DNA of 64,000 nt. It comes from Escherichia phage HP3. The notes under the pieces were generated by a model, which saw only the letters and a list, made by a program, of their open reading frames with translations, made no database searches and had not been told where the DNA came from. The stretch lies in the sequence record NC_041919.1; one strand, 5' to 3'. The translations under genes and the position numbers were made by a program. Shown piece by piece: positions 30,346-58,336 of this stretch (its first letter is position 1; each line of letters opens with the position of its first letter).

Positions 30346-33486
<3,141 letters not shown>

Positions 33487-55582: not shown

Positions 55583-55870
55583 ATGATTCTTTATGCGAAA
55601 GTATCATCCATTGAAAATGGATATAAATATGATCAAGACGCGGCTAAAGCTTTGATTGATGATTATGGCATTTTAACATGTTTTGAAGTTGAAAAGGTTT
55701 ACATTGACCGTTCATCTTCTCAAGTTAAATTAGTGAAGGAAGAACGTAAATTTAATACAGTAAATTTTGATTTCTTTATTGAAACAGAAAAAGGTCCTCT
55801 TGAATATGATATTTTCAAGAATCCTTTGGGTCTTGAATGCATCGTAAATATGTATTATTATAAATGGTAA
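55583..55870 (+). CDS. hypothetical protein
   Basis: 95-aa ORF. Confidence 0.45.
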   Translation: MILYAKVSSIENGYKYDQDAAKALIDDYGILTCFEVEKVYIDRSSSQVKLVKEERKFNTVNFDFFIETEKGPLEYDIFKNPLGLECIVNMYYYKW

Positions 55871-55967: not shown

Positions 55968-56040
55968 TGGGAATTAGCCAAGTTGGTAAGGCACTGGATT
56001 TTGATTCCAGGATGCAAAGGTTCGAGTCCTTTATTCCCAG
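55968..56040 (+). tRNA. tRNA-Gln (anticodon TTG)
   Basis: cloverleaf read by eye: acceptor tgggaat/attccca, anticodon loop ttTTGat, T-loop ttcgagt. Confidence 0.8.
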
Positions 56041-56041
56041 C

Positions 56042-56128
56042 GCGAGAATGGCCAAATTGGTAAAGGCACAGCACTTAAAATGCTGCGGAATGATTTCCTT
56101 GTGGGTTCGAGTCCCACTTCTCGCACCA
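56042..56128 (+). tRNA. tRNA-Leu (anticodon TAA), long variable arm
   Basis: acceptor gcgagaa/ttctcgc, anticodon loop ctTAAaa, T-arm tgggttcgagtccca, encoded CCA. Confidence 0.8.
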
Positions 56129-56133
56129 AATTT

Positions 56134-56207
<74 letters not shown>

Positions 56208-56217
56208 ATTTAATTTA

Positions 56218-56291
56218 CTCCGTGTAGCTCAGTTTGGTAGAGCGTCTGCTTTGGGAGCAGAATGTCGTAGGTTCAAATCCTGCCACGGAGA
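56218..56291 (+). tRNA. tRNA-Pro (anticodon TGG)
   Basis: acceptor ctccgtg/cacggag, anticodon stem tctgc/gcaga with loop ttTGGga, T-loop ttcaaat. Confidence 0.8.
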
Positions 56292-56293
56292 CT

Positions 56294-56383
56294 GGAGGCG
56301 TGGCAGAGTGGTTTAATGCACCGGTCTTGAAAACCGGCAGTCGCTCCGGCGACTCATAGGTTCAAATCCTATCGCCTCCGCCA
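56294..56383 (+). tRNA. tRNA-Ser (anticodon TGA), long variable arm
   Basis: acceptor ggaggcg/cgcctcc, anticodon stem ccggt/accgg with loop ctTGAaa, encoded CCA. Confidence 0.8.
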
Positions 56384-56388
56384 GTTTT

Positions 56389-56464
56389 GCTGATTTAGCT
56401 CAGTAGGTAGAGCAACTCACTTGTAATGAGAAGGTCGGCGGTTCGATTCCGTCAATCAGCACCA
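56389..56464 (+). tRNA. tRNA-Thr (anticodon TGT)
   Basis: acceptor gctgatt/aatcagc, anticodon loop ctTGTaa, T-arm ggcggttcgattccgtc, encoded CCA. Confidence 0.8.
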
Positions 56465-56465
56465 A

Positions 56466-56540
56466 GGCCCTGTAGCTGGAAGGTTCAAGCAAGCGACTCA
56501 TAATCGCCAGATGGTGGTTCAATTCCACCCAGGGCCACCA
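56466..56540 (+). tRNA. tRNA-Ile (anticodon CAT, presumably lysidine-modified as in T4; formally Met-like)
   Basis: acceptor ggccctg/cagggcc, anticodon loop ctCATaa, T-loop ttcaatt, encoded CCA. Confidence 0.7.
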
Positions 56541-56549
56541 AATTAATTT

Positions 56550-56636
56550 GGGGAGTTATCCCGTAGAGGTAGCGGTGTGGACTGTAAATTCATTGTCATT
56601 GCGACTCGGGTGGTTCGACTCCACCACTCCCCACCA
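56550..56636 (+). tRNA. tRNA-Tyr (anticodon GTA), long variable arm
   Basis: acceptor ggggagt/actcccc, anticodon stem gtgga/ttcat (two G-U pairs) with loop ctGTAaa, T-arm gggtggttcgactccacc, encoded CCA. Confidence 0.65.
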
Positions 56637-56640
56637 ATTT

Positions 56641-56715
56641 GGATGTGTAGCTCAATGGCAGAGCGATCGCCTGTTAAGCGATTGGTTATAGGTTCGAATC
56701 CTATCACGTCCGCCA
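56641..56715 (+). tRNA. tRNA-Asn (anticodon GTT)
   Basis: acceptor ggatgtg/cacgtcc, anticodon stem atcgc/gcgat with loop ctGTTaa, T-arm ataggttcgaatcctat, encoded CCA. Confidence 0.75.
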
Positions 56716-56829
56716 AATTTGTGACAACTGTCACATTAATATCTACTTGACGCGATTATAGGGGTTGAACTGATCACTCTTCTCTTAATTTCGTGTGAAG
56801 ACATCTTGATTGTTGGAGTAGGTATTAAT

Positions 56830-56905
56830 GTGGCCGTAGTTCAGTTGGTAGAACTCGAGATTGTGATTCTCGTAGTCATGGGTTCGACTCCCATCGGTCA
56901 CCCCA
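56830..56905 (+). tRNA. tRNA-His (anticodon GTG)
   Basis: acceptor gtggccg/cggtcac, D-arm gttcagttggtagaac, anticodon stem cgaga/tctcg with loop ttGTGat, T-arm atgggttcgactcccat, encoded CCA. Confidence 0.75.
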
Positions 56906-56909
56906 ATTA

Positions 56910-56985
56910 CGGGGCATAGCTCAGAAGGAAGAGCAAGGACCTTCTAAGTCCTAGGTCGTAGGTTCGATCCCTACTGCCTCGACCA
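56910..56985 (+). tRNA. tRNA-Arg (anticodon TCT)
   Basis: acceptor cggggca/tgcctcg, anticodon stem aggac/gtcct with loop ctTCTaa, T-arm gtaggttcgatccctac, encoded CCA. Confidence 0.8.
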
Positions 56986-57003: not shown

Positions 57004-57354
57004 ATGAAAGGTAATGTTTATTTAGTAGTTCATGATTTAACATTCTATTTTAATCATAATGATACTGTTATTTCTGAACGTGTAATTAATTTGCTTTATC
57101 AGCATGCAGATTATGTTTATGTCGAAAACGAATATGGTCATTGGCAATTTCTCAAAAATCGTTCATTTGGTTTAGATGGTTACAAATATTTTGATCGTAA
57201 AGACCTTTTAGATACAATTCCGTTATCTACACAATATCAAAATCATAAGTCTTTACATAAATGCCGGCTAATTCGAAATGCTGAATCCGCGTATGAAGCA
57301 ATTGATTTGTGGCGTAAACGCCGTGAATATATTGATTCTTTAAAAGAATATTAA
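57004..57354 (+). CDS. hypothetical protein
   Basis: 116-aa ORF starting 19 nt after tRNA-Arg with RBS gaggaaaat. Confidence 0.5.
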   Translation: MKGNVYLVVHDLTFYFNHNDTVISERVINLLYQHADYVYVENEYGHWQFLKNRSFGLDGYKYFDRKDLLDTIPLSTQYQNHKSLHKCRLIRNAESAYEAIDLWRKRREYIDSLKEY

Positions 57355-57518
57355 GAAACCGGGTCGCTACCGGTAAGTCGTCGGACTGATGTTCCCTGGA
57401 GTATAGTTTCCTCCCACAGTTTTACTGTGTTCTGGCTCTTTACTATCACAGCAGAAACGGCGCACCGAATTATCGATTCGAGGAAATATCTTTGCCGTAA
57501 GCCGAGTAGCGTTTTTGA

Positions 57519-57612
57519 CGGAACGTTCGGATATGGTCGAGATATGGCCTTTTAAAAATATTGAGTAGCGTCAACTACTTAATAACCGGGTTCGAATCCC
57601 GGCGTTTCGTAC
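57519..57612 (+). ncRNA. candidate tRNA-like element or pseudo-tRNA (not foldable by eye into a full cloverleaf)
   Basis: canonical T-arm ccgggttcgaatcccgg at 57586-57602; possible acceptor pairing cggaacg (57519-57525) with cgtttcg (57603-57609); lies in a 380-nt segment with no ORF of 60 aa or more. Confidence 0.3.
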
Positions 57613-57662
57613 AAACACTTGCCTTAGCAGGTGGAACCCCGACAAGGTTGCCGCAAGGCTTA

Positions 57663-57689
57663 GCCCCGACCGAAAGGTTGGGGCTTTTT
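57663..57689 (+). terminator. intrinsic terminator gccccgaccgaaaggttggggc plus T5 (copy 1)
   Basis: 9-bp GC-rich stem, GAAA loop, then ttttt. Confidence 0.65.
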
Positions 57690-57691
57690 GG

Positions 57692-57699
57692 TATAAATA
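57692..57699 (+). promoter_or_regulatory. late promoter box TATAAATA
   Basis: exact TATAAATA 38 nt upstream of the ATG at 57738. Confidence 0.5.
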
Positions 57700-57737
57700 T
57701 TAGTATATTAAATCTACAAATTAAAATAGGAAATAAG

Positions 57738-58211
57738 ATGAAATCATATACTCAATTTTTAAATGAAGCGGTGTTAAATGAAGCATCTAGCACCGAAATT
57801 CAAGCTGTTGCAAAAGCTGCCATTGCCGCGGGTAAATATTCCTATAAAGATGCTTCTGATGAATCGCGATTCCAGTTTGCACGCGACATGAAAGCGGAAG
57901 GATTTACGGGAAATGCAGTTAGTATGGCCTGGAAAAGTTTAGTTGCTACTGGCGCTGCTTTTGCAAAGGCTTCGGGTAAACCTGCTCCTAAAGCAGATCC
58001 TAAAGCGGCACAAGAAAAAAATATCGTTAAAGGAATTATCGCTAAATATGAAGCTATCCTTAAAGAGCTTTTAGTAATCAAAACCGAAGGCCAAAAGTTA
58101 GCCCGTGCTTATAGTTTCAAAGATAATCCACATGTTCACTCTCTTGAGTATGTTGAAGACATCCAAAAAATTATTAAAGACCGCATTTGGTCTGCTAAAC
58201 AAATCAAATGA
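57738..58211 (+). CDS. internal-protein-like gene with capsid targeting sequence
   Basis: 157 aa from the ATG at 57738 (RBS tagga); N-terminus MKSYTQFLNEA resembles the IP CTS; the track ORF (57561) is an unsupported N-terminal extension across the terminator and promoter. Confidence 0.6.
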   Translation: MKSYTQFLNEAVLNEASSTEIQAVAKAAIAAGKYSYKDASDESRFQFARDMKAEGFTGNAVSMAWKSLVATGAAFAKASGKPAPKADPKAAQEKNIVKGIIAKYEAILKELLVIKTEGQKLARAYSFKDNPHVHSLEYVEDIQKIIKDRIWSAKQIK

Positions 58212-58218
58212 CATTCTT

Positions 58219-58245
58219 AGCCCCGACCGAAAGGTTGGGGCTTTT
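58219..58245 (+). terminator. intrinsic terminator, identical second copy of the 57663 hairpin
   Basis: cttagccccgaccgaaaggttggggcttttt repeated exactly, directly after the stop at 58211. Confidence 0.65.
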
Positions 58246-58336
58246 TAGTTTGAATCACTCGGATAACGCTGTTACGGATAGTAACAAAGTAATAAATAAT
58301 TAATAACCAACCGATAAATTATTTCAAGGATTTTAA

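Follow-up and report, generated by a model that had tools for sequence, protein, structure and literature searches.

Homologues of the T4 species 1 and 2 RNAs at the distal end of a T4-like tRNA operon, with a predicted tRNA-shaped fold for RNAC

Introduction

The tRNA region of phage T4 encodes two further small RNAs, species 1 (gene rnaC) and species 2 (gene rnaD), both of which have been on record since the 1970s. Their expression has been observed by Northern blot (PMC9697503), and transcription of the T4 tRNA cluster ends after the gene for species I RNA (PMC2330249). No function for RNAC or RNAD was found in the literature up to 2025, nor was a comparative structure for rnaC found in the T4 literature (in search results without the sequencing papers of the 1970s), and Rfam contains no family for either gene. 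Few molecules in T4 biology have gone unexplained for as long.

In the tRNA-like domain of tmRNA, the acceptor/T-arm module has no anticodon arm, and a long helix departs from the junction. YrlA (bacterial, Y-RNA-like) and mascRNA (eukaryotic) are tRNA mimics that are released by tRNA-processing enzymes, with the tRNA-like module permitting both processing and stabilisation.

Here, a segment (positions 57355-57689) of the window, i.e. of the whole 64,000-nt stretch of DNA that was analysed, is compared with these systems. With a probability of roughly 0.85, the segment represents the distal, non-coding part of a tRNA operon, comprising rnaD, rnaC, a structured trailer and the operon terminator, with RNAC being tRNA-shaped and proposed to be a tRNA mimic. 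The value as a discovery is small because the species 1 and 2 RNAs are already annotated in the T4 reference genome; the comparative model of RNAC is the new part.

Results

Coding content and transcription signals

An earlier note, made from the letters of the DNA, had described the segment as free of ORFs, as containing a canonical T-arm and as ending in a terminator that is directly followed by a late promoter, and each of these readings held. No internal ORF reaches 60 aa, the longest ones comprising 42 and 34 aa. The T-arm (CCGGG-TTCGAAT-CCCGG in the DNA) was found as described, and a terminator scan returned a stem at 57662-57685 with a T-run extending to 57689, directly after which the late-promoter motif TATAAATA is located at 57692-57699. 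The motif GGTTCRANTCC occurs 11 times in the window, compared to 0.11 expected copies; nine of these lie in the tRNA genes, one in the T-arm of the segment and a stray one at 31253. A mechanically called 216-aa ORF with a TTG start at 57561 reads through the terminator into the downstream gene, whose real ATG start lies at 57738. The positions of all features are given in Table 1.

Table 1. Features of the segment and the adjoining tRNA genes (window coordinates; helices and loops of the RNAs as predicted).
Feature	Position	Strand	Remarks
tRNA genes	55968-56985	+	ARAGORN
rnaD homologue	57351-57466 (approx.)	+	homology to AF158101 rnaD 71053-71171
rnaD hairpin 1, ACCGG / GUCGCUA loop / CCGGU	57358-57374	+	covarying closing pair
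rnaC homologue, 139 nt as annotated in T4	57473-57611	+	T4 rnaC AF158101 70908-71046, KJ477684 70889-71027
RNAC acceptor-like stem, 5' strand CGAUUCG	57474-57480	+	pairs with 57603-57609, CGUUUCG
RNAC rod	57481-57550	+	apical loop UUGACG at 57515-57520
Rod P1ext	57481-83 with 57548-50	+	
Rod P1	57486-96 with 57535-45	+	both-side changes in 9/10 pairs
Rod P2a	57502-05 with 57527-30	+	both-side changes in 3/4 pairs
Rod P2b	57509-14 with 57521-26	+	both-side changes in 5/6 pairs
RNAC hairpin P3, 10 bp	57559-57584	+	loop CGUCAA at 57569-57574; both-side changes in 10/10 pairs
RNAC T-arm, CCGGG / UUCGAAU / CCCGG	57586-57602	+	no spacer before acceptor 3' strand, as in tRNA
RNAC acceptor 3' strand CGUUUCG (57603-09), 'discriminator' U57610, A57611	57603-57611	+	A57611 is the annotated T4 3' end
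3' trailer, removed from mature RNA	57612-57661	+	near-identical to T4, one base apart
Trailer hairpin CACUUGC/CUUA/GCAGGUG	57616-57633	+	
Trailer partial copy of terminator 5' strand, CCCCGAC	57637-57643	+	
Trailer small GCAA hairpin	57650-57659	+	
Intrinsic terminator of tRNA/rnaD/rnaC transcription unit	57662-57689	+	10 pairs (7 G-C), GAAA loop, T-run

The fold of trailer and terminator is more stable than expected for shuffled sequences (z = -4.04), and in Mosigvirus phage 55 the pairing of the trailer hairpin is preserved through a change from G-C to A-U. Many GenBank records assign small proteins ('hypothetical protein') to the segment, with CDS features overlapping the match. The probability that such proteins are encoded here is close to negligible, however, given the shortness of the internal ORFs, the presence of 1-2-nt indels among the homologues, the compensatory nature of the substitutions in RNA helices and the annotation of RNAs at this locus in the T4 reference.

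Homology to T4 rnaD and rnaC

An alignment with the T4 tRNA region, which the earlier note had suggested, matched the segment at ~92% to T4 sequence just downstream of tRNA-Arg, where the reference annotates rnaD and rnaC. Because of this alignment, the identity of the segment is considered settled: judged by sequence, it is the homologue of T4 rnaD (species 2 RNA) together with rnaC (species 1 RNA). The segment matched 807 phage records, with a query coverage of at least 80% in 678 of these, and the order tRNA-Arg, rnaD, rnaC, terminator is conserved. The rnaC homologue lies on the tRNA strand (+) upstream of the operon terminator, in a layout identical to that of T4. Positions 57473-57611 align with T4 rnaC without gaps over 139 nt, with one base different, and RNAC is invariant in the window, T4 and phage G9062 except for three single-base differences.

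Overall, the interpretation offered in the earlier note was supported, with corrections. That something is transcribed and terminated here appears correct, as the homologues in T4 are co-transcribed with the tRNA cluster and the terminator is present. Its proposal of a discrete small RNA or a pseudo-tRNA stood in its first half, through the homology to T4, and failed in its second, in view of a conserved and co-varying structure (see below); moreover, there are two RNAs rather than one.

Predicted fold of RNAC and its covariation

A structural model of RNAC was obtained from 30 distinct homologues, which represent at least nine genera of the Tevenvirinae (numbering: index i corresponds to window position 57471+i). 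In this model, RNAC is a tRNA-shaped four-way junction, in which an acceptor-like stem unites the 5' and 3' ends and adjoins the T-arm. The predicted resemblance to tRNA concerns the acceptor/T-arm half, with the D and anticodon arms replaced by a rod of 61-63 nt and a 10-bp hairpin (P3). The RNAC of the window scored 145.7 bits with the covariance model built here, and its minimum free energy (MFE) fold (-50.2 kcal/mol, z = -4.77) reproduced the comparative model. Single-sequence MFE folds gave the identical junction in seven of eight divergent homologues. In all 24 homologues tested, the rod comprises 61-63 nt and folds on its own as one long hairpin with a 6-nt loop at its apex, and this fold is common to two types that are unrelated in sequence.

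In MAFFT alignments, 86.7-86.8% of the cells were paired, as opposed to 35-45% with the partners slid, and 25-28 pairs showed changes on both sides, as opposed to 2-10. The alignment fitted to the model (30 distinct homologues), whose counts lean towards the structure owing to this fitting, had 88.3% of its cells paired and both-side changes in 34 of 48 pairs (10-13 when slid), and none of 500 shuffles reached the observed value on any of five measures. P3 was paired in 94% of the cells. The middle pair of the T-arm covaries (U-A 14, G-C 12, A-U 1, C-G 1), with 99.3% of the cells paired, and the pair A10-U79 is changed to U-A in PM2.

The acceptor stem shows both-side changes in four of its seven pairs and occurs as four haplotypes: CGAUUCG/CGUUUCG, CGGUUCG/CGUUCCG, AGGUUCG/CGAAUCU (PM2) and CGGUAUG/CAUACCG (Jiaodavirus KPV15). 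It is fully paired in the latter two, with seven Watson-Crick pairs in KPV15 and six plus one G.U in PM2; the T4-type stem is weakened by two invariant central U.U mismatches. The 6-nt loops of the rod apex and of P3 are complementary (99.4% paired) and co-vary as three haplotypes (UUGACG/CGUCAA, UUGGCG/CGCCAA and UUGCAG/CUGCAA), which points to a loop-loop 'kissing' contact; this contact could form between two molecules rather than within one. For both the acceptor stem and the kissing loops, the covariation reflects few independent lineage events (three and two variant haplotypes, respectively). Correlated changes in the IME523 lineage suggested G57546-G57547 as analogues of the D-loop residues G18-G19 touching the T-loop; this idea was dropped, as it concerned a single lineage and as these two bases can form tandem G.A pairs in the extended P1.

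According to the T4 annotation, a single base precedes the acceptor stem in RNAC, whose 3' end lies at U-A. The acceptor stem of the window is followed by ACA where three other lineages encode CCA. U+ACA occurs in 28 distinct sequences, U+CCA in seven (Marfa-like Klebsiella phages and PM2); the Jiaodavirus RNAC also carries U+CCA, giving three U-CCA lineages. Because its annotated 3' end is at U-A, T4-type RNAC probably lacks CCA and is not chargeable.

Could the segment, then, consist of decayed tRNA genes under neutral drift? It adjoins the tRNA cluster, its T-arm is not part of a complete cloverleaf, and the 3' tail of T4 RNAD (...GCGCACCA) resembles the 3' end of a tRNA. This reading was already disfavoured and retains hardly any probability, as it is at odds with the near-invariance of RNAC in the window, T4 and G9062, the compensatory changes in the helices, the maintenance of rod length and loop complementarity across unrelated sequence types, and the expression and stability of the RNA in T4.

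Search for a cloverleaf

The earlier note had been unable to complete a convincing cloverleaf, and ARAGORN likewise called no tRNA at the segment or at its T4 counterpart, and no tmRNA. A scan of positions 57300-57750 with 4227 Rfam models, Y-RNA-like and sRNA families among them, at E-values up to 10, another of its suggestions, identified no family, all matches being far below the family thresholds. The best one was tRNA-Sec, with 17 bits compared to a gathering score of 47; the general tRNA model RF00005 (threshold 29 bits) gave no match at the segment, either at its gathering score or at E-values up to 10, nor did tmRNA at E-values up to 10. Over the whole window, solely tRNAs reached the gathering score.

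The 7-bp acceptor pairing over a distance of ~90 nt that had been proposed did not survive comparison. The complementarity between ACGGAACG (57518-57525) and CGTTTCGT (57603-57610) is present; covariation is absent, with 82% of the cells paired and 499 of 500 shuffles scoring at least as high, and the pairing clashes with the well-supported hairpin P2. Covariation supports CGATTCG, located ~125 nt upstream at 57474-57480, as the partner. This result bears on the reading of 57518-57611 as a genuine, unusual tRNA of ~94 nt with a long variable arm, as found in some genome records. Canonical T-arm and 8 bp of complementarity agree with such a tRNA, and records or ARAGORN place one at the homologous site, as tRNA-OTHER (G9062), tRNA-Lys (phage 55), tRNA-Met (SonariX) or tRNA-Phe (KMB19). 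The anticodons called are in conflict among near-identical sequences, however, and neither ARAGORN (on the window and T4) nor the tRNA models recognise the site. A D-arm and a 7-nt anticodon loop are both missing, the 5' strand of the acceptor pairing required serves as the 3' strand of the covarying P2, and the mature T4 RNA takes in 45 nt further upstream. It is thus extremely unlikely that a tRNA of this kind is encoded here.

Variation in rnaD

The rnaD homologue shares its first 4 nt with the stop region of the ORF at 57004-57354. Its 5' module and 3' tail are conserved, and the central hairpin between them (~57398-57450) is replaceable. Nearly identical to T4 over 45 nt at the 5' end and 25 nt at the 3' end, it has a replaced central sequence that still folds as a hairpin. 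RNAalifold predicted 33 pairs for 13 distinct sequences, ten of which show compensatory changes. The closing pair of hairpin 1 is A-U in 7, G-C in 4 and G-U in 2 of the 13 sequences, and the other four pairs are invariant. For the allele of the window, the stability of the fold does not exceed that of shuffled sequence (z = -0.14). RNAD appears to be a structured RNA in its own right, in which the central hairpin can be swapped within a conserved frame, and to be limited to Tequatrovirus, Mosigvirus and Gaprivervirus. Its derivation from a tRNA was dropped as an idea, there being no model match and no conservation of the CCA-like tail of T4.

When a T4-like phage was adapted to a semi-permissive host, one convergent single-nucleotide polymorphism in rnaD emerged in three lines (PMC12685909), and a host-specific role of RNAD is therefore possible.

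Distribution of RNAC

In several genera, RNAC forms one unit within the tRNA array. It is flanked by tRNA-Trp and tRNA-Gly in Karamvirus and Gelderlandvirus. In Jiaodavirus, to which the family is predicted to extend on the basis of the covariance model solely, it follows tRNA-Pro directly. RNAC was not found in the stretches examined of the genomes of Winklervirus CBH8, Roskildevirus Cronus and Gaprivervirus VR26. Pattern scans for bacterial and archaeal homologues gave 37 matches, all of which were rejected by the covariance model (best 17.9 bits, E = 0.28). Scans of viral and metagenome contigs yielded few loci, mostly near-identical T4-like ones, with chance matches discarded by eye or by the model (L032, L035, L037, L039, L040, L042, L044, L056, L057, L061 and L062).

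This distribution is relevant to the view that the segment is a cis-acting part of the operon, with roles in guiding processing, protecting against 3' exonucleases and ending transcription, and that the excised RNAs are by-products that have no function in trans. Its position at the 3' end of the operon before the terminator would suit such a role, as would the structured trailer, the failure to find a function in 50 years and the lack of RNAC in the searched parts of the tRNA regions of Winklervirus CBH8 and Roskildevirus Cronus. By contrast, the RNAC of Karamvirus, Gelderlandvirus, Mosugukvirus and Jiaodavirus is found inside the tRNA array or adjacent to it, remote from any terminator and unaccompanied by RNAD; its covarying four-way junction and kissing loops are kept in at least nine genera despite a wholly replaced rod sequence, and both RNAs accumulate stably in T4. 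A purely cis-acting segment is therefore considered unlikely.

Discussion

RNAC has no 7-nt anticodon loop, its apical loops comprising 6 nt. It cannot decode and is therefore most likely a tRNA mimic; our best guess is that it acts as a non-decoding mimic matured by tRNA-processing enzymes. RNAC would be excised from the polycistronic precursor by the tRNA-maturation machinery, with RNase P cutting at the 5' side of the acceptor stem and exonucleases trimming the 3' side, where CCA, if present, would be maintained. The tRNA-like 'top half' would confer stability, and the mimic might occupy some tRNA-binding factor of the host or the phage. A more specific version is offered tentatively and with low confidence: the acceptor/T-arm half would let host enzymes mature and stabilise the RNA, the rigid body, locked by the kissing loops, would titrate a host factor directed at tRNA or inhibit it, and RNAD, given its exchangeable central hairpin and the convergent polymorphism (PMC12685909), could be a second RNA determining host specificity. 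Candidate targets of RNAC would be a defence nuclease or toxin that cleaves or modifies tRNA, or an enzyme of tRNA processing. If true, RNAC and RNAD would be RNA-based anti-defence or host-takeover factors that were overlooked for 50 years in the best-studied phage.

As an alternative to a non-decoding mimic, RNAC might be a tRNA-like RNA that can be charged, as a mini tmRNA or in some other form, and might enter the ribosome or donate an amino acid. Its layout matches the tRNA-like domain of tmRNA, U-CCA is encoded in three lineages and PM2 has a G3.U70 pair. This pair is restricted to PM2, however, with position 3:70 of the window being A-U, and T4-type genes encode ACA, the annotated T4 RNA ending in U-A. 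Moreover, there is no reading frame for a tag in merely 140 nt, and tmRNA was detected neither by ARAGORN nor by Rfam, even at E-values up to 10. Such activity is highly improbable.

The RNAs are carried by ~900 phage records, in most of which they are left unannotated or wrongly labelled as odd tRNAs or hypothetical proteins. Experimental handles are provided by the comparative model, namely the tRNA-shaped junction, the kissing loops, the CCA lineages, a swappable rod of constant length and the membership of Jiaodavirus. As phage tRNAs are being linked to the evasion of tRNA-targeting defences (PMC13096335), functional experiments on RNAC and RNAD are timely.

By analogy, RNAC may share with YrlA and mascRNA the concept of a non-decoding RNA with a tRNA-like module. 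It differs in that the segment has no Rfam match to such families, and we know of no counterpart in them to the rod, P3 and the kissing-loop body. With the tRNA-like domain of tmRNA, RNAC shares an acceptor/T-arm without anticodon arm, a long irregular helix and tertiary RNA-RNA contacts in the body, whereas an mRNA-like tag region is absent from it, its length is one third and most lineages lack G3.U70. Canonical tRNAs (RF00005) resemble it in the 7-bp acceptor-type stem, the 5-bp T-stem with its UUCGAAU loop directly 5' of the acceptor 3' strand, the four-way junction, the residence in a tRNA array and, in some lineages, an encoded N73-CCA. Unlike them, RNAC comprises 140 nt without a D-arm or an anticodon stem with 7-nt loop, does not match the tRNA model and, in most lineages, has two invariant U.U mismatches in its acceptor stem.

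In T4, rnaD shares the conserved 5' module and 3' tail with that of the window and likewise lies immediately upstream of rnaC. The central hairpin of the window is a different allele, at least three of which circulate, and T4 rnaD starts 1 nt after tRNA-Arg, whereas a 116-aa ORF (57004-57354) intervenes in the window. No substantive difference distinguishes the two rnaC homologues, which represent the same gene in sister phages, with the same synteny (after rnaD and before the operon terminator) and the same mapped ends.

Identity of the segment

The window is a segment of a Tequatrovirus (T4-like) genome, in which ARAGORN called 11 tRNA genes on the + strand (55968-56985). An earlier note had described 57355-57689 as an ORF-free segment that carries a canonical T-arm, is closed by a strong terminator and directly precedes a late promoter. 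All of these observations were confirmed (see the table), with no ORF of at least 60 aa found inside the segment; a 216-aa TTG ORF from 57561 is mechanical and only prolongs the frame of the next gene upstream across the terminator. At 55622, ahead of the tRNA cluster, there is a further late-promoter motif. The motif GGTTCRANTCC was observed 11 times in the window (0.11 expected), nine times within tRNA genes and once as the T-arm of RNAC (T4 species 1 RNA, gene rnaC). A lone T-loop-like motif, GGTTCAAATCC, lies remote from the tRNA cluster at 31253-31263 (+); since the RNAC covariance model finds no match there, it probably arose by chance or belongs to a coding sequence.

A BLAST search with 57340-57700 against 50,697 phage records matched 807 records, with query coverage of 80% or more in 678; T-even-type coliphages and their relatives make up nearly the whole set. 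The alignment with the T4 tRNA region proposed in the earlier note bore out its reading as a small RNA or pseudo-tRNA: the T4 match, located directly 3' of tRNA-Arg, spans what is annotated as 'rnaC, small stable RNA, species 1 RNA'. In the T4 reference (AF158101), rnaD (species 2 RNA, RNAD) comprises 119 nt and begins 1 nt past tRNA-Arg, followed after 6 nt by rnaC with 139 nt (UCGAUUCG...CGUUUCGUA). We put the probability that the segment represents homologues of rnaD and rnaC at about 95%. The Rfam scan proposed in the same note gave no significant match: Rfam 15 holds no family for RNAC or RNAD, tRNAs alone reached the gathering score over the window, and nothing meaningful was obtained for 57300-57750 at E values up to 10.

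Because T4 annotates rnaD and rnaC at this place and the literature describes both, the element is already known and its detection a rediscovery. Transcription in T4 proceeds through the tRNA cluster and terminates past the gene for species I RNA; eight tRNAs as well as the species I and II RNAs derive from this primary transcript (PMC2330249). A 2010 paper gave the biological function of RNAC and RNAD as unknown (PMC3014915); both RNAs were confirmed by Northern blot in 2022 and classed as late RNAs (PMC9697503).

Features of the segment, its surroundings and related loci (L-numbers denote fetched phage loci)
Feature	Position	Strand	Remark
116-aa ORF	57004-57354	+	phrog_3355, unknown function
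rnaD homologue	~57351-57466	+	alignment to T4 annotation
RNAD 5' hairpin	57358-57374	+	conserved; closing pair co-varies
RNAD long-range helix	57377-83 with 57458-65	+
rnaC homologue	57473-57611	+	alignment to T4 annotation
RNAC acceptor-like stem	57474-80 with 57603-09	+	CGAUUCG with CGUUUCG; two central U.U mismatches
RNAC P1ext	57481-83 with 57548-50	+	3-bp extension
RNAC P1	57486-96 with 57535-45	+
RNAC P2a	57502-05 with 57527-30	+
RNAC P2b	57509-14 with 57521-26	+
RNAC rod loop	57515-20	+	UUGACG
RNAC P3	57559-68 with 57575-84	+	loop CGUCAA, 57569-74
RNAC T-arm	57586-57602	+	CCGGG-TTCGAAT-CCCGG, read in sequence
Trailer	57612-57661	+	one base differs from T4
Intrinsic terminator	stem 57662-57685, T-run to 57689	+	closes the segment
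T4 late-promoter motif	57692-57699	+	TATAAATA; 3' of terminator
157-aa ORF	57738-58211	+	phrog_2280
Jiaodavirus RNAC	L103 2733-2876		Klebsiella phage KPV15; directly 3' of tRNA-Pro
tRNA-labelled RNAC sites	L002 1670-1765; L004 1671-1764; L006 2047-2141; L003 1547-1642

Secondary structure of RNAC

RNAC homologues were gathered from annotated phage records as well as viral and metagenome contigs and numbered such that index i corresponds to window position 57471+i. In two MAFFT alignments (A4 and A5, with 19 and 24 sequences), 86.8% and 86.7% of cells were paired, compared with 35-45% for slid partners, and 25 and 28 pairs had changed on both sides (slid, 2-10). The corresponding values in A7, an alignment of 30 distinct sequences, were 88.3% (slid, 35-47%) and 34 of 48 pairs (slid, 10-13), with none of 500 shuffles reaching the observed value in any of five measures; these counts lean towards structure because A7 was fitted to the RNAC model. 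Single-sequence folding of the window RNAC recovered this fold, a four-way junction (-50.2 kcal/mol, z = -4.77), as did seven of eight minimum-free-energy folds of divergent homologues, and the rod segment folded alone formed a single long hairpin capped by the 6-nt loop in 24/24 sequences. We regard the secondary-structure model as likely to be correct.

The acceptor-like stem occurs in four haplotypes, CGAUUCG/CGUUUCG (Tequatrovirus, Mosigvirus, Gaprivervirus), CGGUUCG/CGUUCCG (most other lineages), AGGUUCG/CGAAUCU (Pectobacterium phage PM2) and CGGUAUG/CAUACCG (Jiaodavirus), with four of its seven pairs changed on both sides and Watson-Crick pairs replacing the U.U mismatches in PM2 and Jiaodavirus. 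The earlier note had instead paired 57518-25 with 57603-10. These strands are 82% paired, but they lack covariation, and the pairing was rejected as it clashes with the well-supported P2, whose 3' strand it uses as its 5' strand.

In every sequence the 6-nt loops of the rod and P3 are complementary to each other, with 99.4% of cells paired; they read UUGACG/CGUCAA (this window's type), UUGGCG/CGCCAA (Klebsiella phages of the Marfa/kv_tblp8 group) or UUGCAG/CUGCAA (Jiaodavirus). As each variant stands for a single lineage event, the evidence for a loop-loop contact is good, not overwhelming; the contact could also join two molecules. In IME523-type Kanagawavirus (L010, L021, L022, L023), the T-loop (UUCGAAU to UGCAUGC) and the junction (GGCC to CGCC) changed together, which may, in this one lineage, hint at a tertiary contact between them.

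RNAD and trailer

Compensatory changes were found in 10/33 predicted RNAD pairs. The fold of the window allele is no more stable than that of shuffled sequence (z = -0.14). The central hairpin exists as at least three unrelated alleles (T4-type, the window's type and VR25-type). In Mosigvirus, a trailer hairpin (57616-33) stays paired despite a G-C to A-U change. Trailer and terminator of the window fold with z = -4.0. A partial third copy of the terminator 5' strand, CCCCGAC, lies at 57637-57643.

Distribution and annotation

The covariance model built here (R1) detected a homologue in Jiaodavirus KPV15 that BLAST had missed (72.4 bits, E = 9e-15), with a fully Watson-Crick acceptor stem, an encoded U-CCA and re-matched kissing loops (UUGCAG/CUGCAA). 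This type occurs in 138 records of Klebsiella and Raoultella phages; those listed lack an annotation for it or call it 'hypothetical protein'. The genera that carry RNAC are Tequatrovirus, Mosigvirus, Gaprivervirus, Karamvirus, Kanagawavirus, Moonvirus, Gelderlandvirus, Mosugukvirus and Jiaodavirus, and several unclassified relatives have it too. It shares the strand of the tRNAs in every case and often forms one unit of their array (as in the order tRNA-Trp, RNAC, tRNA-Gly of Karamvirus and Gelderlandvirus); RNAD occurs alongside it in the first three genera only. RNAC was not found in the fetched tRNA regions of Winklervirus and Roskildevirus, and none of 37 pattern matches from genomes of bacteria and archaea proved to be a homologue under the covariance model.

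RNAC sequences fall into two types that are unrelated across 61-63 nt and otherwise alike, the rod differing in sequence with its flanks, length and apical loop unchanged. Both occur within single genera, in Karamvirus (KMB19 versus KaAlpha; L003 versus L007) and Kanagawavirus (IME523 versus Kosakonia 305; L010 versus L008), which implies that recombination has replaced the rod as a module. The three alleles of the RNAD central hairpin show the same swapping behaviour.

In public records and ARAGORN output, the 3' two-thirds of RNAC goes by the name of tRNA-OTHER, tRNA-Lys, tRNA-Met or tRNA-Phe, with mutually contradictory anticodons, and many other records lay 'hypothetical protein' CDSs over rnaC and rnaD. 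These labels are a systematic mis-annotation of a known RNA.

Proposed processing and role

What RNase P, 3' exonucleases, the CCA-adding enzyme and T-loop modification enzymes recognise is the acceptor/T-arm minihelix, so RNAC may be cut out and stabilised in tRNA fashion. RNase P prefers U at position -1, which fits the U that precedes the first stem base in most RNAC sequences; T4 annotation places the RNAC 5' end at this U and the 3' end at U-A. The base 3' of the acceptor stem is U in all sequences; the next three are ACA in 28 distinct sequences, that of the window among them, whereas PM2, Jiaodavirus and the Marfa-like group have CCA. By analogy with established tRNA biology, we slightly favour tRNA-type processing. 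Having no anticodon loop, RNAC cannot decode; our best guess, held with low confidence, is a tRNA decoy or mimic that would occupy a tRNA-binding factor. A putative role in host interaction is plausible because phage tRNAs have been linked to escape from tRNA-cleaving defences (PMC13096335) and, as reported in 2025, a T4-like phage under adaptation to a semi-permissive E. coli host acquired a single convergent rnaD SNP in three lines (PMC12685909). To what is known of the T4 species 2 and species 1 RNAs, the present analysis adds a covariation-backed RNAC structure, the corrected acceptor pairing, the breadth of the family and the finding that public records mostly leave RNAC and RNAD unannotated or mislabelled.

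Comparison with T4

The window carries 11 tRNA genes versus eight in T4, the extra ones being Tyr, Asn and His; the 114-nt gap between tRNA-Asn and tRNA-His (56716-56829) is without a called gene. T4 has segB between its tRNA sub-clusters, whereas the window lacks it there. In T4 and G9062, rnaD directly follows tRNA-Arg, whereas the 116-aa ORF separates them in the window, so that 3' processing of tRNA-Arg, which could generate the rnaD 5' end in T4, cannot do so here. Mosigvirus phage 55 has an ORF of similar length at the matching position. The terminator, AGCCCCGACCGAAAGGTTGGGGCTTTTT, is present in two identical copies (57662-57689 and 58219-58246, +) that bracket the late promoter and the 157-aa ORF. 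T4 is without this ORF, which looks like a cassette that entered at the terminator by recombination.
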